64,000 nucleotides of DNA from positions 103,991-167,990 of the IMG/VR virus record IMGVR_UViG_3300032287_002972, one strand, 5' to 3'. Source of the stretch: a virus. A program made the position numbers and the translations under genes. Under the pieces are notes generated by a model. That model was not told where the DNA came from, searched no databases, and saw nothing but the letters and a program-made list of their open reading frames with translations. Shown piece after piece: positions 1-37,544 of this stretch (position 1 is its first letter; the number at the start of each line of letters is the position of its first letter).

Positions 1-18
1 AATTTAAAACGTATTACA

Positions 19-270
19 ATGAACCCACCAAAAGGTTATTACAGAAATTTGATTAGTGATTCTAACATCAGAATTGCGTTTACTCATACACCGATTCATG
101 GGTGTACAATCGTTGACAAATCTAAAACCTTAGAGGAGTTAGAGAAGTCAAATGACCAATATTCACAATACTATATTGACGGTTTGAAGTCGGGTAATAT
201 GGTTACGATTGTGGAGAACAGTGTTCATGATAGGTACTTTAGAACGGGTGAACTTTATTTCAGTAACTAA
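19..270 (+). CDS. hypothetical phage protein
   Basis: ORF followed by a terminator hairpin. Confidence 0.6.
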   Translation: MNPPKGYYRNLISDSNIRIAFTHTPIHGCTIVDKSKTLEELEKSNDQYSQYYIDGLKSGNMVTIVENSVHDRYFRTGELYFSN

Positions 271-276
271 AAAATT

Positions 277-304
277 AGGTGGGGAGAAATCCTCACCTTT
301 TTTA
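277..304 (+). terminator. Rho-independent terminator
   Basis: AGGTGGGGA-GAAA-TCCTCACCT followed by a T-run. Confidence 0.75.
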
Positions 305-315
305 TTGTTGGAAAT

Positions 316-361
316 GAATTTAGTGGGGCAAGGAATGGTTAGGTCGTTGCCCCACTAATTC
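316..361. repeat. intergenic palindrome (TTAGTGGGGCAA...TTGCCCCACTAA), copy 1
   Basis: Inverted repeat; copies at about 1026, 1690, 2471, 6584, 8967 and 10114. Confidence 0.9.
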
Positions 362-413
362 GAAATATGCACACGCTGTGGTAAAAAATGAATTAAAAAT
401 AATATAAAATAAA

Positions 414-445
414 TTTGGTTATATGAAATTATTGTTTTATCTTTG
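414..445 (+). promoter_or_regulatory. Bacteroidota sigma-A-type promoter (-33 TTTG / -7 TATCTTTG)
   Basis: TTTG-N20-TAnnTTTG; related copies before most + strand cassettes (about 1123, 1833, 2610, 6732, 7204, 7776, 9068, 10216, 11134, 11561, 12394, 12910, 13976). Confidence 0.85.
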
Positions 446-465
446 TCTAAACAAAAACAATAACG

Positions 466-690
466 ATGTATAACAAACACATTTGGGAAGGGTGGACTGT
501 TCGAGACTTTATTAACGACCTCGAACCAACATTTAATTTAATCATGGAGGGTCAATCTCACATGAAACCTTTTAACAATGATAATGAACTAAAAGAGTGG
601 TGTAAAGATAACCAACCTTATTACAAAAAACACATTCCCGAAGTTTTCAATTATTTTAAAGGTAAAATAATAAATTACAGAGGTCTTTAA
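466..690 (+). CDS. hypothetical phage protein
   Basis: ORF directly after promoter. Confidence 0.75.
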   Translation: MYNKHIWEGWTVRDFINDLEPTFNLIMEGQSHMKPFNNDNELKEWCKDNQPYYKKHIPEVFNYFKGKIINYRGL

Positions 691-701
691 AACTATTTAA
701 A

Positions 702-977
702 ATGAGTAACCAAAAAATTGTTCGTGATTTATCTAAAGAGTTTATTAGTAAAATAGACAACTACAATATAAGGGGGTGTTTTATTGATTTTAAAAAACCA
801 TTTAAAATATACGTTGAACAAGGTAGTGAAAACGTGAAACACTCTTATGTTGTTTATGGTATGGACGAAAAAGGTCTTTATACAAGTGATTTTGATATTC
901 CATTAAGTGATATTGAAGTTGAAACACTTGGGTATATTCTCGATGTTCTTGAATCAAATGAATTTATTATCGGTTAA
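702..977 (+). CDS. hypothetical phage protein
   Basis: ORF followed by terminator. Confidence 0.7.
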   Translation: MSNQKIVRDLSKEFISKIDNYNIRGCFIDFKKPFKIYVEQGSENVKHSYVVYGMDEKGLYTSDFDIPLSDIEVETLGYILDVLESNEFIIG

Positions 978-1025
978 ACTAAAATCCCCTTACGAAAGTT
1001 TGGGGAATTTTTTTGGGTCAAATCC

Positions 1026-1154
1026 AATTTAGTGGGGCAAGGAATGGTTAGGTCGTTGCCTCACTAATTCGAAATATGCACACGCTGTGGTAAAAAATGA
1101 ATTAAAAATAGTATAAAATAAATTTGGTTATATGAAAACTTTGTTTTATCTTTG
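1026..1154 (+). repeat. palindrome + promoter cassette, copy 2
   Basis: Near-identical to 317-445. Confidence 0.9.
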
Positions 1155-1177
1155 TCTAAACAAAAACAATAACAATT

Positions 1178-1636
1178 ATGGGATTTTTTTCATGGAAAAC
1201 GAGTGATACTAATAAAAGTATCCCAAGTAATTACAGTAACAGAAGTACCTTTACTGTACACTTAATTACAAAAGACCGTCAAATTTTCACTGAATCCGAT
1301 TATGAAGGTTATGGTGTGTTTGGTGGTAAAGATTTTTACGAACTTGTTGCGGAACTGAATGGAATTACAGAAGGAACTACTGACGAAAAAAGAAGTGAAG
1401 GGATTGATATTTGTTTCAAAGATAATCCAAGTGGTGAGTTTAACGGAACATTTGAATATCCAAAATTGGTTGAGGAACTACCAAGTGAATCTCGTTGGGA
1501 AGAACAATGGGAAAGATTACCTTATCCTGAAAATTGTGAACATCAGGGATTTTTTTACGGTGATGAGGAAGAAGAAGAAGAAGAAGAAGAAGAATATGAA
1601 TTTGAGGAAGAAGAAGAAGAATTTGAGGAAAAGTAA
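1178..1636 (+). CDS. conserved phage protein with poly-Glu tail
   Basis: MGFFSW...YEGYGVFGGKDFYEL; GAA repeat tail. Confidence 0.8.
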   Translation: MGFFSWKTSDTNKSIPSNYSNRSTFTVHLITKDRQIFTESDYEGYGVFGGKDFYELVAELNGITEGTTDEKRSEGIDICFKDNPSGEFNGTFEYPKLVEELPSESRWEEQWERLPYPENCEHQGFFYGDEEEEEEEEEEYEFEEEEEEFEEK

Positions 1637-1646
1637 TTAAATTAGT

Positions 1647-1864
1647 CCCGTATCATTTATTTGATACGGGATTTTTTATGATCGAAAATGAATTTAGTGA
1701 GGCAAACAAAACGTATGACATTGCCCCACTAAATTCGGACTTGCTGTTGCACACTATTAATCTTTTGCCTCACTAAATTTGAACTCAGCACACGCTGTGG
1801 TAAAAAATGAATTAAAAATAATATAAAATAAATTTGGTTATATGGAATTATTGTTTTATCTTTG
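1647..1864 (+). repeat. terminator + three-armed palindrome + promoter cassette, copy 3
   Basis: About 140 bp nearly identical to 2429-2570. Confidence 0.9.
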
Positions 1865-1884
1865 ACGAAACAAAAACAGACAAG

Positions 1885-2091
1885 ATGAAAAAACAAAAAG
1901 GTGTTCAAGTATTATCCCCTGACGGGATAACAATCGAGTTTGGGTCTTTCTATTATGAGAATATGAAAGAAGCGAAAAGGGGTTTTGAACGGTGGAAAAA
2001 AAGATTTGAAAATCAGGGTTTTTACAGTTCAAATAACGGTAGAATCCCTTTAGATGAATTAGAAAAACATTGTCAATTTAAACCTATTTAA
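1885..2091 (+). CDS. hypothetical phage protein
   Basis: ATG after promoter (track start 1834 lies inside the promoter). Confidence 0.7.
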   Translation: MKKQKGVQVLSPDGITIEFGSFYYENMKEAKRGFERWKKRFENQGFYSSNNGRIPLDELEKHCQFKPI

Positions 2092-2094
2092 AAA

Positions 2095-2415
2095 ATGGAA
2101 AAGTTTAATCAAGTATGTGTTTGGGAAGGTACTACTGTTGGTGTTGGGTCTGAACAAGAATTTGTTGATTGGTTAAAACAAGTGTTTGGTGTGAGAGGTA
2201 AATATTTGGAAGAGGTGGAAACTTTACCTACACGAAATGAACCAAACACGGGTGGTAGAATTGATTTATTCTTTAGTGTACATGATGATGACATACCTAA
2301 ATTTGCGGTATCGAGGATTCTTTATGGTATTAGGTGGTGGGAAGACGTTTTAGGAAACGGTGGTGGTCAACTGTACGATGATACCGTATTACATAGGTAT
2401 CCTAAGAGTTGGTAA
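2095..2415 (+). CDS. hypothetical phage protein
   Basis: ORF, GGRIDLFF...GIRWWED. Confidence 0.75.
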   Translation: MEKFNQVCVWEGTTVGVGSEQEFVDWLKQVFGVRGKYLEEVETLPTRNEPNTGGRIDLFFSVHDDDIPKFAVSRILYGIRWWEDVLGNGGGQLYDDTVLHRYPKSW

Positions 2416-2428
2416 TTAATCCCAAAAG

Positions 2429-2641
2429 TCCGTATCATTTATTTGATACGGATTTTTTATGATCGAAAATGAATTTAGTGAGGCAAACAAAACGTATGAC
2501 ATTGCCCCACTAAATTCGGACTTGCTGTTGCTCACTATTAATCTTTTGCCCCACTAAATTTGAACTCTGCACGTGCTGTACTACAAAATAAAAAAAAGTA
2601 TAAAATAAATTTGGTATAATGAAAACTTTGTTATATATTTG
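2429..2641 (+). repeat. terminator + three-armed palindrome + promoter cassette, copy 4
   Basis: Duplicate of 1647-1790. Confidence 0.9.
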
Positions 2642-2662
2642 TGGTATCAAAAAACAAACAAG

Positions 2663-2917
2663 ATGAAAGATGGAAAAATCACCTTATTAAAAGGTGAAGG
2701 AGCTCACCAACATACTTTGTATGGTAGGTTTGAGGTCAAAAAAGATTTTACCGATTTTACAGAAGTTGACGTACTCGAATGTCAATTAAGACATGAACTA
2801 CCAAACGGTACATTTGGTGAACACAATACACTAAATGTAGAAAGTGGTGAATGGGTCATGGGTAAACAAGTTGAGTATAATCCTTTGAGTAAAAAGGTTA
2901 CAAGAATTTGGGATTAA
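2663..2917 (+). CDS. His-rich QGD-family partner protein lacking the N-terminal QGD strand
   Basis: Aligns with 36176-36565 (GEGAHQH, ECQLRH, EH...G.W...QVEYNPL...RIWD). Confidence 0.75.
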   Translation: MKDGKITLLKGEGAHQHTLYGRFEVKKDFTDFTEVDVLECQLRHELPNGTFGEHNTLNVESGEWVMGKQVEYNPLSKKVTRIWD

Positions 2918-3006
2918 TCAAAAAAAGACTATCTACCTTTACTATATCTTAAATAATGGTAGATAGTCTTTTTATCTTTTTCATTATATTTATAATAAAA
3001 AGTATA

Positions 3007-3606
3007 ATGAAAAAGATAAGAGAAGTTTTAGCACCAAACCAAAAAATTTTTACAACTAAAGGTGAAGAAACATCGTGGTCATTTTTACATGATGTTGAAT
3101 ACAAAAAATACGGTAAAACCGTGAGAAGAATAATTAAAGTTAAATGTGAATGTGGTAGAATTAAAGATGTTCAATATAACAACATTCGTGGAGGTCATTC
3201 AAAATGTTGTGGTTTTGATCCTTGTCGAATACCATATAATAAACATAGAAGAAATCCTGAAACCACATATAATGTACTTTATTATACATACAAAAAAGGT
3301 GCGTTAAAAAGACATTTACCTTTTGAATTAAGTATAGACCAATTTAAAACATTTTTAGATAAAAATTGTTTTTATTGTGATGAAATACCTTCAAGTGTAT
3401 ATGAAATTAGAAACAGTCAAACAGGTAGAATTAGGGCTGGTTTACCATTAACATATAATGGTATTGATAGAATGGATAATAATATTGGATACACGATGGA
3501 TAATTCCGTAACTTGTTGTATTACTTGTAATAGAATGAAACTGGCGTTAGGTTATCAAGATTTTTTAAATCATGTTGAAAAAATATACAAAAAAATGTAC
3601 AAATAA
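3007..3606 (+). CDS. HNH homing endonuclease
   Basis: CECG, CFYC, GIDRMDNNIGY..DNSVTCCITCN. Confidence 0.85.
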   Translation: MKKIREVLAPNQKIFTTKGEETSWSFLHDVEYKKYGKTVRRIIKVKCECGRIKDVQYNNIRGGHSKCCGFDPCRIPYNKHRRNPETTYNVLYYTYKKGALKRHLPFELSIDQFKTFLDKNCFYCDEIPSSVYEIRNSQTGRIRAGLPLTYNGIDRMDNNIGYTMDNSVTCCITCNRMKLALGYQDFLNHVEKIYKKMYK

Positions 3607-3676
3607 ATTTGAAAATATAAAATTTATATTTGTATATTTGTGTTGTTATTTACTTATTAACTCAAAAAAATTCATA

Positions 3677-4084
3677 ATGAATCCTGAAGTACATTCAAAA
3701 AGTTCAGTAAAAAGATGGGGTGGTAAAATTTCTGATTATTTGGACATACATATTCTTTTAGATAGTCCAAAATCAACAATGAACAATAATAGTTCAAGGT
3801 TACTCACTCACAATACATGGTTTGCGTATCACATTATACCCAAAATATTTGGTTACAATATAACCAATAGTGACGGAAAAAGTGTTGATACTGTTGACGT
3901 GGCGATGTTACACATAGCCGAAGACTTTAGAATGAAATTTGTACCTACCCCACAAGATTATTTAAAACATTTAGATGTTCAACCGTGGATGTGTAATGGT
4001 ATAAAAGATTTAGGTAGTAAAGAAGGAACTGAAATTGTTAAAAACTTAAACCAAAAACTAAAAGATGAAAACTCAAACAGTTGA
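3677..4084 (+). CDS. DUF6915-like protein
   Basis: HSKSSVKRWGG..DY..IH..LD..K, R...H, NSDGK, HIAED. Confidence 0.7.
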   Translation: MNPEVHSKSSVKRWGGKISDYLDIHILLDSPKSTMNNNSSRLLTHNTWFAYHIIPKIFGYNITNSDGKSVDTVDVAMLHIAEDFRMKFVPTPQDYLKHLDVQPWMCNGIKDLGSKEGTEIVKNLNQKLKDENSNS

Positions 4085-4721
4085 ATTAGAAGAAAGTTTA
4101 AAACTATGGAAAAAATCAATGATTGACCATTGTATTATGGATTTTTCATGTGGTGGTGATTCTATGAATGAATTTACTTTTGTATTTTATGATGAAAATA
4201 AAAATGTATTACGTTCTGAAGACATTGAAACCATTGATAAATTTTTTGAAGAAGAAGTTTTTGATAAGGTAGATTTTTATGTAAATTCTGACGGTCACTA
4301 CTTGGGTGAATTTGGAACGGTACATATTGAATTGAATAATGATGGTGATGATTTTGAATATTCAAAAGATTCTTCATCTGAATATTCTGAATCCGTTACC
4401 GAAGAATTTATATTCCAATTAACTGATGATGAGTATGACTTACTTAGTGAAAAAATTTCAGATTTTAATGGTGATACTTCGGGACTTGTTGTAAACTACA
4501 ATTTGGATTGTATTATTACCGATAAAGAAATAATCACTATGAATGATTTTGAAAAGAAAATTATTAACTTTGTTCTTGATGTTGAATTTGAACATGGTTT
4601 TGAGGAGGCTCAAGAAGAAAGTGAAACTTTTGAATGTAATGTTCAAGATGTATTAAACGAAAATAAGACGATAGAACTTATTATAACTAGGTCGTATTAC
4701 GTCACTGTTACTAATGATTAA
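4065..4721 (+). CDS. acidic hypothetical protein (FSCGGDS motif, possibly DUF6878-like)
   Basis: Overlaps the previous gene; GGDS motif. Confidence 0.6.
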   Translation: MKTQTVELEESLKLWKKSMIDHCIMDFSCGGDSMNEFTFVFYDENKNVLRSEDIETIDKFFEEEVFDKVDFYVNSDGHYLGEFGTVHIELNNDGDDFEYSKDSSSEYSESVTEEFIFQLTDDEYDLLSEKISDFNGDTSGLVVNYNLDCIITDKEIITMNDFEKKIINFVLDVEFEHGFEEAQEESETFECNVQDVLNENKTIELIITRSYYVTVTND

Positions 4722-4786
4722 TAAATCTATTTAAGAATCCCTAACTATTTTGTTAGGGATTCAAAAACAAAACAAAAACAAACAAG

Positions 4787-5494
4787 ATGAAAATAGTTAT
4801 TGATAATGTTGAGTTTCCTTTCAATGAAGGTTGTAAACTCCTCAAACTAAAACATGGTTCAAATACTGAAAGTCCTTTTAAAGAGATTGAAGACTTTTGG
4901 AACGAAATTGAACCATTAACATTTAAAGAAATTATTACCACATTTAATAACGTGGAACAAAGGAGAATAGCCTTATCCTATTTAGGTTTAGAAAATCTTT
5001 CAAAAGAAATCAATTCTAAATTGGTTTCAAGTGAAACAATTTCAAAAGAAACTACATGGGTCAATAAAGAAGGTGTTACCGAAACAATTAAGTTTGAAGA
5101 CAAATATGAATTATATTCTGTTGACCCAAAAGAATTAGGGTATCATGAACAACACGTTTGGTATAATGGGAGTATCAATATGGGAAATTACCATTACCTT
5201 AAATTTAAAGATACGTCAACCGATAGAGAATATTTACTTTGGGTGGATTGTGGAAACATAATTAGAACGAAATCCGAAGGAAAAAATAATGATACACATT
5301 TACGCACAATTCATGTTGACGCCATTGACGCCATCGCATGGACAATTCAAACTAATCTAAAAAAGGGTGACATTGAAAAAATTATCCGTCAAGGTGATTG
5401 TATCTTACTGAAAAGAAAAAAAGGTGTTGAAACTGATGTTGTAAGACATTTAACAAGTGACGAATATCGTTCTTTACTTGTATTGGAAAGTTAA
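4787..5494 (+). CDS. DUF6745-like protein with C-terminal RQGD motif
   Basis: NVEQRR, DTSTDREYLLWV, DAIAWT; aligns with the C-terminal half of 36591-37544. Confidence 0.7.
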   Translation: MKIVIDNVEFPFNEGCKLLKLKHGSNTESPFKEIEDFWNEIEPLTFKEIITTFNNVEQRRIALSYLGLENLSKEINSKLVSSETISKETTWVNKEGVTETIKFEDKYELYSVDPKELGYHEQHVWYNGSINMGNYHYLKFKDTSTDREYLLWVDCGNIIRTKSEGKNNDTHLRTIHVDAIDAIAWTIQTNLKKGDIEKIIRQGDCILLKRKKGVETDVVRHLTSDEYRSLLVLES

Positions 5495-5583
5495 ATTTTC
5501 ATTCTTGATTTTTGTTTAAAATCCCTGACTAATTTGTCGGGGATTTTTCTTATCTTTGTTTAAACTTTAAAAAACCAAAACGT

Positions 5584-6474
5584 ATGACAAAAAATGTAGT
5601 ATCCTTATTCGATGGAATGAGTAGTTTACAAATATCCTTGAGAAACTTGGGTATTGAAATTGATAACTATTATGCTTCTGAAATTGAACCCGACCCAATT
5701 AAAGTAACATTATCCAATTTCCCTAAAACAAAATATCTTGGTGATGTTAGATATATTGATACGTCAACCCTATACAATATATGGTTGTTAGGTGCAGGGT
5801 CACCATGTACAGATTTTTCTTTAATGGGTTTGAGAAAAGGTTTATTAGATATTCATACTTTAGATGAATATCTTAGATTGAAACATGAAGGTTTTGATTT
5901 CGGGAATACTCAATCTATTTTGTTCTTTGAGTTTCTAAGAATCTTAAAAGAATTAAACCCAACGTACTTTTTTTTGGAGAACGTGGTATTAAAAGGAGAA
6001 TTTAAAAAGTACGAGAAAATGATTTCTGAATACTTAGGGGTTGAACCAATGATTATAAATAGTTCTTTGGTTTCATCACAAAATAGAGAAAGATGTTATT
6101 GGACAAATATCCCGAATGTAAGTGTTCCAAAAGATAGAAAGATTTATTCTTTTGATGTTATTCCTAATTCAATTAGTTGTGGTGTTAGAGGTGTAATGAA
6201 TAAAGATGAAGGTAAGTATATTCAAAAATTAACCTTTAGAAAAGATGATAAATTTAACTGTTTGGTTACGAATCCCCATTCAACAAATTTAGTTAAGGTT
6301 GGGAATGAGGATATAAGAAAAATAACTATCGAAGAATCTGAAAGAATCCAAACAGTTCCCGTTGGTTATACTAATGTTGAAGGTGTTTCCGATTCAAGTA
6401 AATATAAAATGATTGGTAATGGTTGGACAATTAATGTTATTGACCATTTGTTAGAACCATTAATTAATGAATAG
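5584..6474 (+). CDS. dcm: DNA (cytosine-5) methyltransferase
   Basis: SLFDG, GSPC, ENV, QNRER, GNG motifs. Confidence 0.92.
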   Translation: MTKNVVSLFDGMSSLQISLRNLGIEIDNYYASEIEPDPIKVTLSNFPKTKYLGDVRYIDTSTLYNIWLLGAGSPCTDFSLMGLRKGLLDIHTLDEYLRLKHEGFDFGNTQSILFFEFLRILKELNPTYFFLENVVLKGEFKKYEKMISEYLGVEPMIINSSLVSSQNRERCYWTNIPNVSVPKDRKIYSFDVIPNSISCGVRGVMNKDEGKYIQKLTFRKDDKFNCLVTNPHSTNLVKVGNEDIRKITIEESERIQTVPVGYTNVEGVSDSSKYKMIGNGWTINVIDHLLEPLINE

Positions 6475-6583
6475 TTTACTTTCTATTTGGTTTTGTGTAT
6501 AATTACCATTATTGTGTTATCACAAAATTTATCTTTGGTTTGAGGGTGGAATTTTTTTCACCCTTTTTTTTATACCTGAAAAT

Positions 6584-6682
6584 GAATTTAGTGGGGCAAG
6601 TTGTAACAAATAAATGCTTAATTTGTTACAACACAAATTTAGTGGGGCAAGGATTGGAAACGGGGTTGCCCCACTAAATTCA
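6584..6682. repeat. intergenic palindrome, copy 5 (two forward arms, one reverse)
   Basis: AATTTAGTGGGGCAAG twice plus TTGCCCCACTAAATT. Confidence 0.85.
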
Positions 6683-6792
6683 AAATTTACGCACGGAGTA
6701 AAAAATAATTATAAAAAAAGTATAAAAAACATTTGGTTATATCAAATATTCTTTTTATCTTTGTATTATTAAATAACTAAAACAATAACATC

Positions 6793-7098
6793 ATGGCATT
6801 TTACGGCGACGGGAAACACAATGAGAACATGGAAAAAACAACTCCAGTTTTAAGAGAGTTTATTTTTAATTTAGACCAAAAGGTCACTACATGGATGAGA
6901 ACAGAATTTACGATTGAAGCGGAAACATTGACTGAAGCAAAAGAACTTGCAATTAAGTTTCATTTAGATGGAGAAACAGAAGAAATTGAATGGAAACAAA
7001 TTGAGGGGTGTTATGAAAAATTAGACATAGAAGATAACTTTAATGACCCTACGGAAGAAATTTTCTTTAACGGTCTTATTGTATATTCTAACAAGTAA
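6793..7098 (+). CDS. hypothetical phage protein
   Basis: Promoter-ORF-terminator cassette. Confidence 0.7.
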   Translation: MAFYGDGKHNENMEKTTPVLREFIFNLDQKVTTWMRTEFTIEAETLTEAKELAIKFHLDGETEEIEWKQIEGCYEKLDIEDNFNDPTEEIFFNGLIVYSNK

Positions 7099-7256
7099 TA
7101 AAAAAGGGTGGGAAGAAATTTCCACCTTTTTTTGTTTATGTGTATTACGTCACCAACTTACATTCGTGTATTACCTGAGCGGTAAAAAAAAGTATAAAAA
7201 ATATTTGGTTATATGAAATTATTGTTTTATCTTTGTGGAAACAAAAACGAACAACT

Positions 7257-7481
7257 ATGAGGTATCAAATTAAAAGAGAATGTTGGAACGAAAAAACGTT
7301 CAACGGTTATCAAGACAATCCATATTGGAGAATTGATTTTCAAGATATGGGGTATGTTTTATTAGATGATGGTAGAGTATGGTGTACTAATGGTATGGAA
7401 ATTTCAGACCCTGTTTTAGATGATATTAGGACAATTATTAAGGAATGTAAACTTAATATTGAATCACTAATAAAACTATAA
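7257..7481 (+). CDS. hypothetical phage protein
   Basis: ATG after promoter. Confidence 0.65.
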   Translation: MRYQIKRECWNEKTFNGYQDNPYWRIDFQDMGYVLLDDGRVWCTNGMEISDPVLDDIRTIIKECKLNIESLIKL

Positions 7482-7484
7482 ACA

Positions 7485-7763
7485 ATGAAAAAAACAGAAT
7501 TGATTAATTACATTCAAGGGGTTGTTAAAACGTATGGTGAATTTTCAACCGCTGACGTTGAAGCAGATTCAAGTCCCGTTATTAAATCATTACGGAACAC
7601 ACACTTATTAGCAGAAGTTTTTGGTGAAGAAAAAGTAACGGCGGTTTTATATGTCGATGACAATGATGTTGATGAGGAATATATTAGTTATGATGAGTTA
7701 AGTAAAGATGTGTTGAAAGAAATTTCTTTACTATGTAAACAATGGGAATTACAGGAAAAATAA
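7485..7763 (+). CDS. hypothetical phage protein
   Basis: ORF. Confidence 0.7.
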   Translation: MKKTELINYIQGVVKTYGEFSTADVEADSSPVIKSLRNTHLLAEVFGEEKVTAVLYVDDNDVDEEYISYDELSKDVLKEISLLCKQWELQEK

Positions 7764-7828
7764 ATATAAAAAATGTTTGGTTATTTCAAATATTCTTTTT
7801 ATCTTTGACGAAACAAAAACGGTAAATT

Positions 7829-8023
7829 ATGAAACTAAAGTTTGAAGTAAAATGTAATTGGTGTGATTGGGAAGGTTACGAAGACGATTTGACATTAGAA
7901 GTAGATTTGTCCGATAACTTAATTTCACACGACGTACAGTATAGGAAAGTTTGTCCTGAATGTTTATCAGAGGATCATTTAATGGATATTGAATCTGATG
8001 AATTAACATCTAAAATAGATTAA
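7829..8023 (+). CDS. small Zn-ribbon protein
   Basis: CNWC...CPEC. Confidence 0.65.
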   Translation: MKLKFEVKCNWCDWEGYEDDLTLEVDLSDNLISHDVQYRKVCPECLSEDHLMDIESDELTSKID

Positions 8024-32817: not shown

Positions 32818-33009
32818 CTATCTGGAACGTATTTGTATAAGTATGTTACCATAAACTTGATTATGTATTTTAAACCATAATTCAGCAAATAAAGTACCAC
32901 GTACTTGATGATATATTCGTTCACTTAAATGTTTTACTGTTTTATTATGTGACCAATTATACATTTTATAGTGTATTTGTTCATACATTTCTCTACTTAC
33001 AGATTTCAT
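32818..33009 (-). CDS. QVxx array protein
   Basis: array member. Confidence 0.65.
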   Translation of the reverse strand: MKSVSREMYEQIHYKMYNWSHNKTVKHLSERIYHQVRGTLFAELWFKIHNQVYGNILIQIRSR

Positions 33010-33194
33010 ATTTTTATATTTTCAATTAATATATTTCGTAACCCAATAATATGTTCGTGAGTTATTGGAACCACTATATTACTACGTACATGTGCCCATA
33101 CAGCATAACTTAATTTATCGTACACAGTTTTGTGTGCGTCATAAGAATAACATACTTTAACTCGATTATATATTTGTTCTTCAACTGACTTCAT
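33006..33194 (-). CDS. QVxx array protein
   Basis: array member. Confidence 0.65.
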   Translation of the reverse strand: MKSVEEQIYNRVKVCYSYDAHKTVYDKLSYAVWAHVRSNIVVPITHEHIIGLRNILIENIKI

Positions 33195-33379
33195 AATTTT
33201 ATGTTTTCCGCTACAATACCTACCATTTGAATCATTACTTGGTCAAATATTTTTTTCTCTGTTTGGTGACACATATCATTATATACATGTCTATTTATTT
33301 TACCGTATATTTTATTACACATTTTAGATGCACAATAATCATATACTTTTTTTTTAATTAAATATTTCGTATCATTCAT
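33191..33379 (-). CDS. QVxx array protein
   Basis: array member. Confidence 0.65.
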   Translation of the reverse strand: MNDTKYLIKKKVYDYCASKMCNKIYGKINRHVYNDMCHQTEKKIFDQVMIQMVGIVAENIKL

Positions 33380-33573
33380 AATTTAATGTTACTTTTTACT
33401 CGGTTAAAAAATCTACTATGTACTTGATTTGATATTTTACTACCTACTCGTTCATCTACTTGGTCAAATACATTACCACTAATTTTTCCATATACTTGTT
33501 CATGTACTTCGTCATATAATAGAAACCACACTTTATGTACTTGAATACCTAATCTAACACTTACTTGTTTCAT
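33376..33573 (-). CDS. QVxx array protein
   Basis: array member. Confidence 0.7.
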   Translation of the reverse strand: MKQVSVRLGIQVHKVWFLLYDEVHEQVYGKISGNVFDQVDERVGSKISNQVHSRFFNRVKSNIKL

Positions 33574-33770
33574 TATTTTATATTGTTTTTTATATCAATT
33601 GTAATATTAGGGACATTATTGTCAAATAAAACAATGAGTGTATGGAAATATATCTGACCATTTACACCACATAACAATGTGGTGCTCATTTTATTACGAG
33701 AACCACCACTAAAGAACCCTAATTTTTCATTCACTTGAGATTCAATATTTTTCATACTTTCAGATTCCAT
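33573..33770 (-). CDS. array protein (divergent)
   Basis: array member. Confidence 0.6.
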   Translation of the reverse strand: MESESMKNIESQVNEKLGFFSGGSRNKMSTTLLCGVNGQIYFHTLIVLFDNNVPNITIDIKNNIK

Positions 33771-33940
33771 TTTATTTGACGAAATATTTGGTTGTGTAAT
33801 TGGTTATTTATACATATAGTAATATTATTTTCTACATGTATACATACAACAAAAGGCACATGTTTGTTTACAATTGAAATGAGTGGTTTCTGTACTTCAC
33901 TCCATATGATTCTTTGAGGTACTTCTAAAGATGTTATCAT
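33752..33940 (-). CDS. array protein (divergent)
   Basis: first gene after promoter. Confidence 0.6.
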   Translation of the reverse strand: MITSLEVPQRIIWSEVQKPLISIVNKHVPFVVCIHVENNITICINNQLHNQIFRQIKWNLKV

Positions 33941-33963
33941 GATATATTATCGTTTTGTTAAGA

Positions 33964-33995
33964 CAAAGATAGGTCGAATGTTTCACATAACCAAA
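33964..33995 (-). promoter_or_regulatory. Bacteroidota-type promoter inside the array
   Basis: minus strand TTTG-N20-TATCTTTG. Confidence 0.8.
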
Positions 33996-34013
33996 TTAAT
34001 AACTTGAACCTTA

Positions 34014-34214
34014 TCATTTTTTTTGTTGTTCATTCTTAATTTGGTCAAGTATGGGTCTATATAATTGTTCACTTACTTGGGTATTCACGTAAATATGTAC
34101 ATCAGAAACTAACTTACCTTGTATCCTTATAGAGACACTATTAAACAAATCCTCATATATTTTGTGACGTATAGAACTAATATCTTTACGTAGTGATTCG
34201 TTAAAGTTCTTCAT
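34014..34214 (-). CDS. array protein
   Basis: array member. Confidence 0.65.
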   Translation of the reverse strand: MKNFNESLRKDISSIRHKIYEDLFNSVSIRIQGKLVSDVHIYVNTQVSEQLYRPILDQIKNEQQKK

Positions 34215-34282
34215 AATGTTTTATTTACAACCATATTAATAATAACTTGGTTACGTATTTGATTATACAATAAATGATATGA

Positions 34283-34471
34283 CTAATCTTCTTTTTCATA
34301 TTCTTTATATAATGAAACAAGAGATAAATTATAATTCCTATTAGGGATAAATAATTTAGTCTGAATAGTGTCTCTTACATGATAATTAACATTAGAACAT
34401 ATCGCTTTACTGTGAATATACATTATTTTATTCACCAAAATGTCGCTAATTATTTTTTGAAAATTATTCAT
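34283..34471 (-). CDS. array protein (divergent)
   Basis: array member. Confidence 0.6.
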   Translation of the reverse strand: MNNFQKIISDILVNKIMYIHSKAICSNVNYHVRDTIQTKLFIPNRNYNLSLVSLYKEYEKED

Positions 34472-34476
34472 ATTAT

Positions 34477-34713
34477 TTATGGTTTAATATTTTTTAACGA
34501 ATAAATATTTTCACTTTCAACCTTATTTGGGTAAATATTATTCACATCTTTCCATACTGTGTCCATATGTATACTCACGTCAATCATTACATCATTACAA
34601 ACTTTTTCTCTAGATAATAAAATAATATCAGATAGAAATTTATGCATCTTGTTATCAATAACCTTCTCAATCTTTTTCATTTTTTTATCAATCTTGTTTA
34701 TAACACTTTTCAT
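34477..34713 (-). CDS. array protein (divergent)
   Basis: array member. Confidence 0.6.
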   Translation of the reverse strand: MKSVINKIDKKMKKIEKVIDNKMHKFLSDIILLSREKVCNDVMIDVSIHMDTVWKDVNNIYPNKVESENIYSLKNIKP

Positions 34714-34898
34714 GGTTTAACATTTTGTTTTACTTGAACATATGATTTATCACTAACCTGTTCAAATACTTCTCCATGAATATCATCATATATTTGTGTA
34801 TGTAATTTATCAGAAAATTTCTTATCTAATAATTTATGTATATGTCTATACACACTTTTAATTAACCGATTACGTATTTTAGTTCTCAAATTCTTCAT
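34710..34898 (-). CDS. array protein
   Basis: array member. Confidence 0.65.
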   Translation of the reverse strand: MKNLRTKIRNRLIKSVYRHIHKLLDKKFSDKLHTQIYDDIHGEVFEQVSDKSYVQVKQNVKP

Positions 34899-35089
34899 CG
34901 TTCATATTTTTTTCTAAATTTAATATCATAATAAACTCTATTCTTAGTTAAATTGGATATGCTATTAATCACAGTTTTATTATTCACTTTATTATAGATT
35001 TTACTACCCACAGTTTCAAAAAATTCTGCATGGTTAGGTTTAATTTTAAGTCCGATGATATCTGATATTTTAATTCTTATATTATTCAT
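34895..35089 (-). CDS. array protein (divergent)
   Basis: array member. Confidence 0.6.
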   Translation of the reverse strand: MNNIRIKISDIIGLKIKPNHAEFFETVGSKIYNKVNNKTVINSISNLTKNRVYYDIKFRKKYER

Positions 35090-35328: not shown

Positions 35329-35778
35329 TTATATACTGTTAAAAAAATCATTGTTTTTAAAAATCAAGACAATAAAATCTAAGACAGAATCATCTAAAGG
35401 TTTATAGATATCACCTTGTATTGTCTGAAATAATAATATAACACATTCCTTGTCCCCCATTTCAGATAGAACATCGTATGGAACAGTTTCAATACCTTTT
35501 CTTTTTAAAATAACATTTATATCGAAAGAACACTTTGGTTGAATGTAATTTACAGGTATGTCAAGTTTCATCTTAAACAACTGATCACATTTCTCATAGT
35601 CCTCAATTTTTTCAAACTCTTTGATTAATACAGATAACCCTGAATTATATGTAATCATATTAAATTTACTAACACCATCGGTTATATATTTATAGTACAT
35701 ATATTCCACATTATCCATTTCTTTAGATAATGTTAAGTACATTGAATTATTTGTAAATAGTTCATCCATGAAACTCAT
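35329..35778 (-). CDS. hypothetical protein (EDYEKC UVR-like motif)
   Basis: ORF. Confidence 0.65.
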   Translation of the reverse strand: MSFMDELFTNNSMYLTLSKEMDNVEYMYYKYITDGVSKFNMITYNSGLSVLIKEFEKIEDYEKCDQLFKMKLDIPVNYIQPKCSFDINVILKRKGIETVPYDVLSEMGDKECVILLFQTIQGDIYKPLDDSVLDFIVLIFKNNDFFNSI

Positions 35779-36175: not shown

Positions 36176-36565
36176 TTAATCAATCACTCTCTTCTTAACA
36201 TTTTCCAAGGGGTCGAACCTTGTTTGAATGTCCACGTAGTATTTACCCGGTGGTACAATCGTGTGACGGTGGTCCTTCTTTGTTGTCACAACAGGTTTAT
36301 CCAATGTGATTCCAAGACCTTGTAACTCGGACTGTAAAGAGTGATTTAAAATACACTCCTCATGTGCTTCGATTACGAAACCACCGTTATCGTACTCGTA
36401 GATATCGTAGTTACCGAACAGAGCGTGGAAGCTACCAGATCTCTCTGACGCTGCAATGTACTGCTTTGTAACTTTTTTAATACCTTTGGGGAGTTCCTTC
36501 ACTTTGAAGAACTGAACATCACCCTGATGAAAACTAACGTTTTCGAACTTTAATTTGTTTTTCAT
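36176..36565 (-). CDS. HQGDV-motif His-rich protein (DUF6745 partner)
   Basis: HQGDV, SERSGSFH, LNH, DH, PPGKY, Q..FDP. Confidence 0.75.
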   Translation of the reverse strand: MKNKLKFENVSFHQGDVQFFKVKELPKGIKKVTKQYIAASERSGSFHALFGNYDIYEYDNGGFVIEAHEECILNHSLQSELQGLGITLDKPVVTTKKDHRHTIVPPGKYYVDIQTRFDPLENVKKRVID

Positions 36566-36590
36566 GAAAAACGGTTTTATATATAAATAT

Positions 36591-37544
36591 TTAGTTTGCT
36601 GAATACCAAGTATAATCTACAGAATCAGGTACATTACTTGGTCTGTGCCATTTAGCACATTCAATAGCATCTGTAAATGTTGGACATGTATCAATCAGAT
36701 ATACTGACTTCGTACTTGGACAAGTAAACTCAATCCAAGCGTATGGTTGATCTAACTCTCCTTTACTATTCTGTAAGAATGAATACTTTGTTTTACTTCT
36801 ATAAATTCTAATCGTCTCTTCGTAACCATTTTCGTGTTTAACATTCTTCTCATCAACAATTTCAGCGTCCAACATTTCTAATAAACCTTGATTACCAAAA
36901 TTCTCTTTAATGATTGTGATGATAGCCGCTCTGATATCCTCATTTGTATTTTTATGGAAACAAATCTTAGCGTTAATCAAAGAATCACATTCGTTAAAAA
37001 TATCTTCTTCGATAAATCTACCATTAACATAATGTTGTCCATAACCATCATCAAATTGAATAGCGTGTCCTGTGGTACAGTGAAGGTCGTTATTAGCGTT
37101 TCTAGAAATCTTGTTTGGATATTTAGACACTAAACAAACTTTATCCATTTGGATTTGAAGATATGAATTAGAAACACACTCACTAATCAGATTAAAATTT
37201 TCTCTGTGTTCTTCCATGAAATCGAAGTTATCAAGAAAATATTCATAAAAAGATAACCACGAAGTGTCGTCAGCGTTTATGTAAGCCGAAAACGGTTCAT
37301 ATACTCTCTTTTCATTACCTAATAACCTGTTAATCTCAACTTGACAAGCCATAGGACTATCTAACAAAAACACTTCAGGTTCATCTAATTCACAGAACTT
37401 ATACAATTTCTTCATTGCAATTTCTGTTTTCTTTTGGTCATGGTTTTTGTAAAACTCATAATTGAAAATTTTAGATAACCACTTTTCCCTTTGGGAATCT
37501 AATTTACCTTCTTGTTCTGGTGTTAATTTCTCAATTTTAGACAT
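36591..37544 (-). CDS. DUF6745-family protein without the central repeat insert
   Basis: IEKLTPEQE, DSP, WLSFYEYF, LHC..G.AI.F.DG, NEDIR, CPST. Confidence 0.75.
   Translation of the reverse strand: MSKIEKLTPEQEGKLDSQREKWLSKIFNYEFYKNHDQKKTEIAMKKLYKFCELDEPEVFLLDSPMACQVEINRLLGNEKRVYEPFSAYINADDTSWLSFYEYFLDNFDFMEEHRENFNLISECVSNSYLQIQMDKVCLVSKYPNKISRNANNDLHCTTGHAIQFDDGYGQHYVNGRFIEEDIFNECDSLINAKICFHKNTNEDIRAAIITIIKENFGNQGLLEMLDAEIVDEKNVKHENGYEETIRIYRSKTKYSFLQNSKGELDQPYAWIEFTCPSTKSVYLIDTCPTFTDAIECAKWHRPSNVPDSVDYTWYSAN

Follow-up and report, generated by a model that had tools for sequence, protein, structure and literature searches.

How can members of a phage protein family do without the segment that carries the family's most conserved motif? 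The question is raised by a locus at positions 2663-5494 of a 64-kb stretch (the window) of IMG/VR virus record IMGVR_UViG_3300032287_002972, which is 168 kb long and estimated to be ~50% complete. One gene of this locus encodes p84, a short member of the QGD family of small beta-proteins, in which the motif normally lies at the turn of an N-terminal beta-hairpin. Another encodes p235, a DUF6745-like protein in which a hairpin with the motif RQGD is found. At a second locus (36176-37544) the window encodes a long-form QGD protein with its own hairpin, p129, and a full-length, hairpin-free DUF6745-like protein, p317. We propose that p84 and p235 are probably two subunits of one assembly, in which, as complex modelling predicts, the p84 fold would be completed in trans by the hairpin of p235.

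Sequence and profile comparisons were used to define what p84 lacks. Residues 17-84 align to residues 47-129 of p129 (BLASTP, E 0.001), and the p84 family profile (residues 2-84) aligns to that of the p129 family (residues 31-129) with an hhalign probability of 94% (E 1e-7). A reading made earlier from the letters alone (the sequence-only reading) had claimed that 2663-2917 matches the gene at 36176 without its N-terminal QGD part, and these alignments bear it out: relative to p129, p84 lacks the first ~30 residues, the invariant HQGD included. A search of 1.84 billion representative sequences with the p84 profile yielded 90 proteins of two kinds, short (~80-100 residues) and long (~104-134 residues). 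When compared by hhalign with 24 long forms, p84 residues 1-84 corresponded only to long-form residues 25-110 (probability 99.7%, E 1.7e-26); the p129 family matched the long forms with the N-terminus included in the coverage (99.2%, E 1.1e-19). By its profile match to the long-form body, therefore, p84 is a genuine family member that is without only the first ~24 residues, and its start, as placed by alignment, falls exactly past the family's N-terminal hairpin.

The turn motif of the long forms is [R/H/Q][Q/H]G[D/E], with RQGD, RHGD or QQGD at residues ~6-10. Their invariant residues comprise the Gly of QGD, the Glu of GE, two His of H.H, the His after a conserved Leu, one His of EH, one further Gly and a C-terminal Asp, with p84 counterparts at E12, H15 (variable), H17, H44, H54, G62 and D84. 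The bodies of the small proteins share the motifs GE..H.H, L.H, EH and EY.P...V.D with its C-terminal Asp, and E12, H17, H44, E53, H54 and the C-terminal D84 are conserved in p84. The short forms constitute a family of ~84-90 residues found at 84 IMG/VR loci; the 24 sequences compared are 51-74% identical and share 18 invariant residues. The p129 family comprises 422 homologue clusters (counted, as below, at 90% identity) in which HQGD is invariant, and the AlphaFold2 model of p129 (predicted local distance difference test, pLDDT, 74) is all-beta, with hairpin strands at 7-14 and 17-22 and HQGD (13-16) at the turn. No usable fold neighbour of this model was found by Foldseek against the PDB (best E 0.72) or by a wide VIA-align search (best Z 3.1). 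Four long forms (P0388, P0383, P0356 and P0368) match phrog_27831; p84 and p129 have no PHROG match at E <= 0.1, so that their tie to this group is by profile-profile comparison only. The long forms have no Pfam match, and p84, p129 and the neighbouring GGDS protein fall in no family of Pfam, PHROGs, NCBIfam or PADLOC. The QGD family is a widespread phage family of small, all-beta, His-rich proteins.

Two ways in which p84 might still be joined to a hairpin in its own chain were considered. A hidden upstream exon or an alternative start that includes the hairpin was ruled out: a promoter-like repeat abuts the p84 ATG and thus leaves no room for upstream hairpin coding, and there is no QGD-type motif nearby in any frame. 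Fused p84/p235-type proteins, for which the sequence-only reading had proposed a survey, were absent from the 1.84 billion representatives searched with the p84 profile, fusions of long forms not having been searched for separately. The two matches of greater length were a repeat protein and a 2507-residue protein with a marginal partial match.

As judged by profile alignment, p235 corresponds to only the C-terminal module of DUF6745-like proteins, with the EQRR helix and the PST/DTST strand-loop. Its residues 38-151 align to residues 183-284 of p317 (hhalign of family profiles, 95.6%, E 1.3e-8), and the N-terminal DUF6745 part (profile positions ~1-90) is missing: p235 matches positions 92-138 only and aligns to the last third of p317. 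The PF20530 scores of p235 (10.8-11.6 bits) and p317 (25.4-26 bits) are both under the cut-off of 27, and these proteins are the only two PF20530 matches in the phage record; p317 is further related (BLASTP, 9e-13) to a protein of locus L013 with a precomputed PF20530 hit. The GGDS and DUF6915 proteins encoded beside p235 were ruled out as the absent N-terminal half (hhalign probability ~0.1%).

The homologues of p235 form more than 1168 clusters of ~216-256 residues. Across 45 aligned homologues, some only 31% identical, neither the RQGD residues (R201, Q202, G203 and D204) nor the DTST loop at 142-145 varies. In the AlphaFold2 model of p235 (pLDDT 84.7), strands 196-202 and 205-210 form a hairpin with QGD at its turn, followed by a loop, a helix (224-230) and a strand (231-234); the hairpin comes after the last core helix and before a short tail at the C-terminus. 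The sequence-only reading had placed a QGD strand at the C-terminus of p235. The motif is indeed present, at residues 201-204, but the element is a two-stranded hairpin rather than one strand, and it is internal, with 25 residues following. When the p235 family was compared with the long forms by profile, a single match was obtained, joining p235 residues 198-211 to long-form residues 4-17 (E 1.3e-3), the portion absent from p84. No usable fold neighbour of the p235 model was found by Foldseek against the PDB (best E 0.03) or by a wide VIA-align search (best Z 3.4), and a profile search of PDB sequences gave noise at E ~0.5 for p235 and nothing for the long forms.

Translation of the window in six frames gives only three matches to [RHQYI][QH]GD followed by a hydrophobic residue: in p235, in p129 and at 35421. 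The third site (IQGDI, in a 149-residue protein at 35329-35778 on the minus strand, downstream of p129) is probably a chance occurrence.

The distribution of the hairpin was determined at ~150 IMG/VR loci fetched with either the p84-type or the p235-type family. Many of these loci are closely related, and counts are of distinct sequences, not of independent events. None of 51 distinct p84-type open reading frames (ORFs) has an N-terminal QGD motif, and RQGD is present in 55 of 57 distinct p235-type ORFs, the other two being truncated; the conservation that the sequence-only reading anticipated for homologues of the gene at 4787 thus holds both here and in the alignment of 45. In a divergent clade with 31-32% identity (L164/L165), a longer DUF6745-like protein with RQGD adjoins a short form without the hairpin. 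A blind test was made with four further divergent short forms from the search of representatives (P0319, P0354, P0338 and P0305), which were chosen before their neighbours were seen. All four adjoin a p235-like gene with the motif, which is RHGD in one case and RQGD in the others.

The converse arrangement was found around the long forms. At 18 IMG/VR loci of the p129 family, a DUF6745-like gene lies directly upstream in 14 and downstream in one, in no case with RQGD; of the remaining three, one is at a contig edge, one has a truncated gene and one shows no detectable neighbour. Long forms also stand beside motif-free DUF6745-like genes in L006-L010, L012 and L013-15, the neighbour in L013 being the protein with the recorded PF20530 hit. 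In the cultured Microcystis phage Ma-LMM01, gp175, a long form with RQGD, adjoins gp174, which matches PF20530 at 54.4 bits and has no RQGD. The two families are thus evolutionary partners. In the loci examined the hairpin belongs to exactly one of the two proteins, and this reciprocal rule holds in every adequately sampled locus.

Several loci depart from the usual arrangement in other respects. In Ma-LMM01 (L192, record positions 153-159 kb) gp175 precedes gp174, the reverse of the metagenomic order, and the two genes are flanked on one side by a uracil-DNA glycosylase gene and on the other by a DNA polymerase gene, past which a 3'-5' exonuclease gene is found. At L182:460-836 a p129-type gene extends over two frames, owing to a frameshift or an assembly error, and the DUF6745-like gene follows rather than precedes it. 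In L175 the position expected of a DUF6745-like gene is occupied by a repeat-rich ORF, similar in flavour to a run of 62-66-residue paralogues near p129 in the window. Among GenBank phage genomes there was no nucleotide match to 2000-7000 of the window and no tblastn match for p235 or p129; the only relatives there are distant long forms, in Microcystis phages.

That the phage carries two architecturally distinct versions of one system, as the sequence-only reading had it, is upheld: they lie at 2663-5494 and 36176-37544. Nine further phage records were sampled, of which several are 90-100% complete; each has exactly one QGD-family gene, short or long, and the possession of both versions by one phage is unusual.

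Complex modelling of p84 with p235, which had been suggested as a check, was done with alignments made for this analysis and gave a complex score of 0.80, compared with 0.59 for the best control. Of 80 solved complexes, 58 attained the mark applied here, as did 2 of 110 mismatched pairs. The three complex runs share at least 90% of their contacts, and the pLDDT of the partner is at least 82. In the predicted complex the second strand of the hairpin pairs with a strand of p84: the lowest-error contacts are between p235 206-210 and p84 62-67 and between p235 186-191 and p84 65-70, and p235 202-210 lies inside the predicted interface. The family alignment places p84 62-68 opposite p129 107-113, a segment modelled as a strand in p129. 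The predicted interface takes in 14 of the 18 invariant p84 residues, including H17, H44, E53, H54 and D84 (hypergeometric P = 0.002), and 7 of the 20 invariant p235 residues, including S144, T145, Q202, G203 and D204 (P = 0.044). The physical complex and its geometry are predicted from these models. The reciprocal hairpin rule, a complex prediction that narrowly exceeds the controls and the fraction of invariant p84 residues placed at the modelled interface all point to a dependence of p84 on its partner, in line with the complementation that the sequence-only reading had suggested.

These data suggest the following mechanism. The assembly would derive from a widespread phage gene pair that encodes a DUF6745-like protein and a small, all-beta, His-rich QGD protein. 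In the ordinary pair the small protein starts with the hairpin, its invariant motif at the turn. In the variant at 2663-5494 the hairpin is instead built into the DUF6745-like partner, as residues 196-210 of p235. On assembly, strand 205-210 of p235 would pair with strand 62-67 of p84 and complete the p84 sheet in trans, by the principle of donor-strand complementation, and the QGD turn would be brought to the face of p84 that bears conserved His, Glu and Asp residues.

Several observations weigh against this mechanism. The margin of the complex score over the best control is 0.21, with 0.20 required, and the control that scored 0.59 was an unrelated protein. The hairpin shared by p235 and the long forms gives only a short match, of 14 columns with an hhalign probability of 18%, and AlphaFold2 folds the p235 hairpin confidently without p84 (pLDDT ~83-93), so that it could be stable in p235 alone. 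In this phage p84 is apparently its own transcription unit, with a strong stem-loop and three genes between it and p235. As to a metal site, the p129 family has lost the first His of H.H, and the p84 family varies at that position. The self-sufficient hairpin and the narrow score margin would both be expected if p84 were a self-sufficient shortened domain and the hairpin acted in cis in p235, for instance as an independent binding element for the same ligand or metal; the two proteins would then belong to the same module, perhaps even the same complex, with no complementation of folds, and four-gene synteny alone would account for their co-occurrence. Such an arrangement, however, leaves without explanation the strict reciprocity of loss and gain across at least six divergent lineages, as well as the recurrence of the same motif, the same hairpin-turn position and the same RHGD variant in both settings, and it does not sit easily with the mapping of most invariant p84 residues to the predicted interface. 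We consider it unlikely.

The shortness of the match, together with the failure of BLASTP and of a first profile comparison to find anything between p235 and p129, would also suit a chance or convergent RQGD in p235, with p84 merely an N-terminally truncated paralogue. A chance motif would not be expected to be invariant throughout the p235 family, to belong to a pattern found only three times in the six frames of the window, to lie at a hairpin turn in both AlphaFold2 models and to follow a presence/absence rule that held in four of four blind tests, and we judge this explanation very improbable. It is scarcely credible that p84 is a decaying pseudogene, left behind when a rearrangement or the HNH insertion truncated a QGD gene: p84 does lack the family's N-terminal segment and a gene of homing type does adjoin it here, but the short form is a conserved family in its own right, with its 18 invariant residues and 84 loci, p84 has a promoter-like element and an intact frame, and the HNH gene is absent from most cassettes. 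Assembly of p84 with p235, the fold of the former completed by the hairpin of the latter, thus remains our preferred explanation.

If p84 and p235 assemble in this way, the conserved residues would be drawn together. The His/Asp metal site that the sequence-only reading had thought probable is suggested by conservation: E12, H17, H44, E53, H54 and D84 of p84 and D204 of p235 may form a metal or ligand site at the interface, and the three conserved His would suit metal binding. More generally, one interface site may be built from the QGD turn, the DTST/PST loop of the DUF6745 module and the conserved His, Glu and Asp of the small protein. The gene neighbourhood (HNH and C5 methyltransferase genes here, DNA polymerase, exonuclease and uracil-DNA glycosylase genes in Ma-LMM01, helicase-methylase and sliding-clamp genes in L009) gives a weak hint that the module could serve DNA or nucleotide metabolism early in infection, or the takeover of the host. 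A more specific idea, which we put forward as a doubtful speculation, is that DUF6745-like and QGD proteins are a two-subunit metalloenzyme with an interface active site (QGD turn, three His, Glu/Asp and DTST/PST loop) that can be divided differently between the chains. In a phage with both versions, the hairpin of p235 might then let short and long forms assemble or be regulated separately, for example through timing (the p84 promoter and stem-loop) or through cross-talk among p235, p84, p317 and p129.

The p84-type and p235-type genes co-occur on one strand with DUF6915 and GGDS genes in the ~150 loci. The DUF6915 gene of the window scores 101.5 bits (cut-off 27) and covers the full profile, positions 1-102; the GGDS protein has the invariant motifs CGGD and SDGHY.GE.G. 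Both proteins are obligatory further members of the variant module. The sequence-only reading had located these two genes between p84 and p235, which is confirmed, although an HNH endonuclease gene lies there too. The gene order of the window, p84-DUF6915-GGDS-p235, was found at 38 distinct loci, p235-p84-DUF6915-GGDS at 6, DUF6915-GGDS-p235-p84 at 5 and GGDS-p235-p84-DUF6915 at 1. These orders are cyclic permutations of one circular order, and all four possible rotations are represented; no non-cyclic rearrangement was seen in L016-L165, except for one contig (L085/L149) with the genes dispersed over ~14 kb. The simplest explanation would be that the cassette was duplicated in tandem and that the ends were then lost. 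In the minority orders the p84 start lies within tens of bases of the p235 stop. A second p235-like ORF at L149:3491-4264 ends before the hairpin and tail and may be a truncated paralogue or a pseudogene.

How the hairpin came to reside in p235 can be considered in the same context. Adjacency of p235 and then p84 mirrors the canonical order of DUF6745 and then QGD genes, and fusion followed by a new split would therefore fit as an origin. In its last ~15 residues (~220-235), however, p235 is similar to the tail that ends canonical DUF6745 proteins (L012 and Ma-LMM01 gp174), which suggests internal insertion rather than terminal capture. A simple shift of the gene boundary is not fully satisfactory as an origin, given the canonical-like tail after the hairpin.

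The HNH ORF is open from 2956, and its likely start is the ATG at 3007, past the stem-loop. The gene is absent from most related cassettes and present in one other lineage, L092/L161, where it occupies the same junction between p84 and DUF6915 genes and is flanked by a short DUF6915-like fragment; this arrangement suggests that the HNH gene homed into the DUF6915 gene at its 5' end. The hairpin split is far older than, and independent of, the HNH insertion.

Coordinates of the variant locus, the canonical pair and associated elements in the window
Feature	Position	Strand	Remarks
Promoter-like intergenic repeat	2590-2666	+	Abuts p84 start codon; repeat family D1
p84, 84-residue short form of QGD small beta-protein family	2663-2917	+	
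Stem-loop, terminator-like	2922-2973	+	16-bp stem, 20-nt loop, U-rich tail
HNH endonuclease gene	3007-3606	+	phrog_1035 (4e-11), phrog_3118 (6e-10)
DUF6915 protein	3677-4084	+	Pfam PF21866
GGDS protein, 218 residues	4065-4721	+	Cassette member
p235, 235-residue DUF6745-like protein, hairpin-bearing	4787-5494	+	
Beta-hairpin within p235, residues 196-210	5372-5416	+	RQGD at turn, nt 5387-5398
Intrinsic terminator 3' of p235	5518-5547	+	12-bp stem, then T-run
C5 cytosine methyltransferase gene	5584-6474		After p235 terminator
p129, 129-residue long-form QGD protein	36176-36565	-	
N-terminal hairpin of p129, residues 7-22	36500-36547	-	HQGD at 36518-36529
p317, full-length DUF6745-like protein, hairpin-free	36591-37544	-	p129 directly after

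Expression signals surround p84. The 77-nt promoter-like D1 repeat is present in seven copies in 1-8000 of the window, every one just before a gene start (394-470, 1103-1179, 1813-1889, 2590-2666, 6712-6788, 7184-7260 and 7756-7832); the copies end at the start codons of successive small genes. A sigma-70-like match lies at 2611-2639, upstream of p84. The RNA stem-loop after p84 has a predicted folding energy of -21.5 kcal/mol (z = -6.65), and none of 200 shuffled sequences folded equally well. Together with upstream palindromes (family D3, with arms of TTAGTGGGGCAA type) and terminators, the D1 repeats make up an array of one-gene expression units. A 152-residue protein at 1178-1636 has a long C-terminal poly-Glu tract encoded by GAA repeats (repeat family D5), and about eleven paralogous genes for proteins of 62-66 residues occupy 32818-35089 on the minus strand, just downstream of p317/p129.

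The variant can be compared with the canonical pair, in which a DUF6745 protein is encoded beside a long-form QGD protein, as in Ma-LMM01 gp174/gp175 and p317/p129 of the window. The same two families are involved in both, and both have the QGD hairpin, the small-protein motifs GE..H.H, L.H and EH with the C-terminal Asp, and, in the large protein, the PST/DTST loop. In contrast to the canonical pair, where the hairpin is the N-terminus of the small protein, the hairpin of the variant lies inside the large protein, which, unlike a canonical DUF6745 protein, is the C-terminal module only. The variant is always accompanied by DUF6915 and GGDS genes, which were not found beside canonical pairs.

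Completion of a fold in trans is known from other systems. In chaperone-usher pili, the chaperones (PapD, FimC) and the pilin subunits engage in donor-strand complementation. As predicted for p84 and p235, an incomplete beta fold in one chain receives the missing element from another by edge-strand pairing; the proteins and folds are, however, unrelated (no fold neighbour was found), p235 would donate a two-stranded hairpin with the family's most conserved motif, and the complete ancestral form coexists with the split form, with no sign of strand exchange or polymerisation. Some phage enzymes are assembled from the products of separate genes, such as the T4 topoisomerase gp39/gp60 and, in T4-like phages, nrdA or DNA polymerase genes split by homing endonuclease genes. 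There, as proposed here, one ancestral fold is encoded by two genes and assembled post-translationally, and a homing-type HNH gene lies inside the present cassette; unlike in those cases, the small piece has been grafted into an existing partner and is not a free-standing product. Engineered split GFP (GFP1-10 and GFP11) likewise has a beta-rich protein without a terminal beta element completed in trans, whereas the present case is natural and the donor element is embedded in a folded partner. The known principle is thus fold completion in trans, and what is new is that a conserved hairpin has moved from one partner to the other; with the two proteins probably joined in one unit, few natural instances of such an exchange of a structural element between partners would be comparable. 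A literature search found no paper mentioning DUF6745 or DUF6915, or Ma-LMM01 together with gp174, and none that joins donor-strand complementation with gene fission.

DUF6745 and phrog_27831-type QGD proteins are abundant in aquatic phages, with more than 1100 and more than 400 clusters for the proteins of the window. For these families the analysis predicts that DUF6745-like and QGD proteins bind each other, names the contact residues and places the QGD turn in the interface site. The locus would provide a natural example in protein evolution in which the element with a family's most conserved motif has been reassigned between subunits, with the ancestral and derived architectures in one genome and many lineages available for comparison. 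The cyclically permuted cassette offers a small system for the study of gene-order change. For annotation, it follows that short, seemingly 'truncated' ORFs such as p84 need not be defective.

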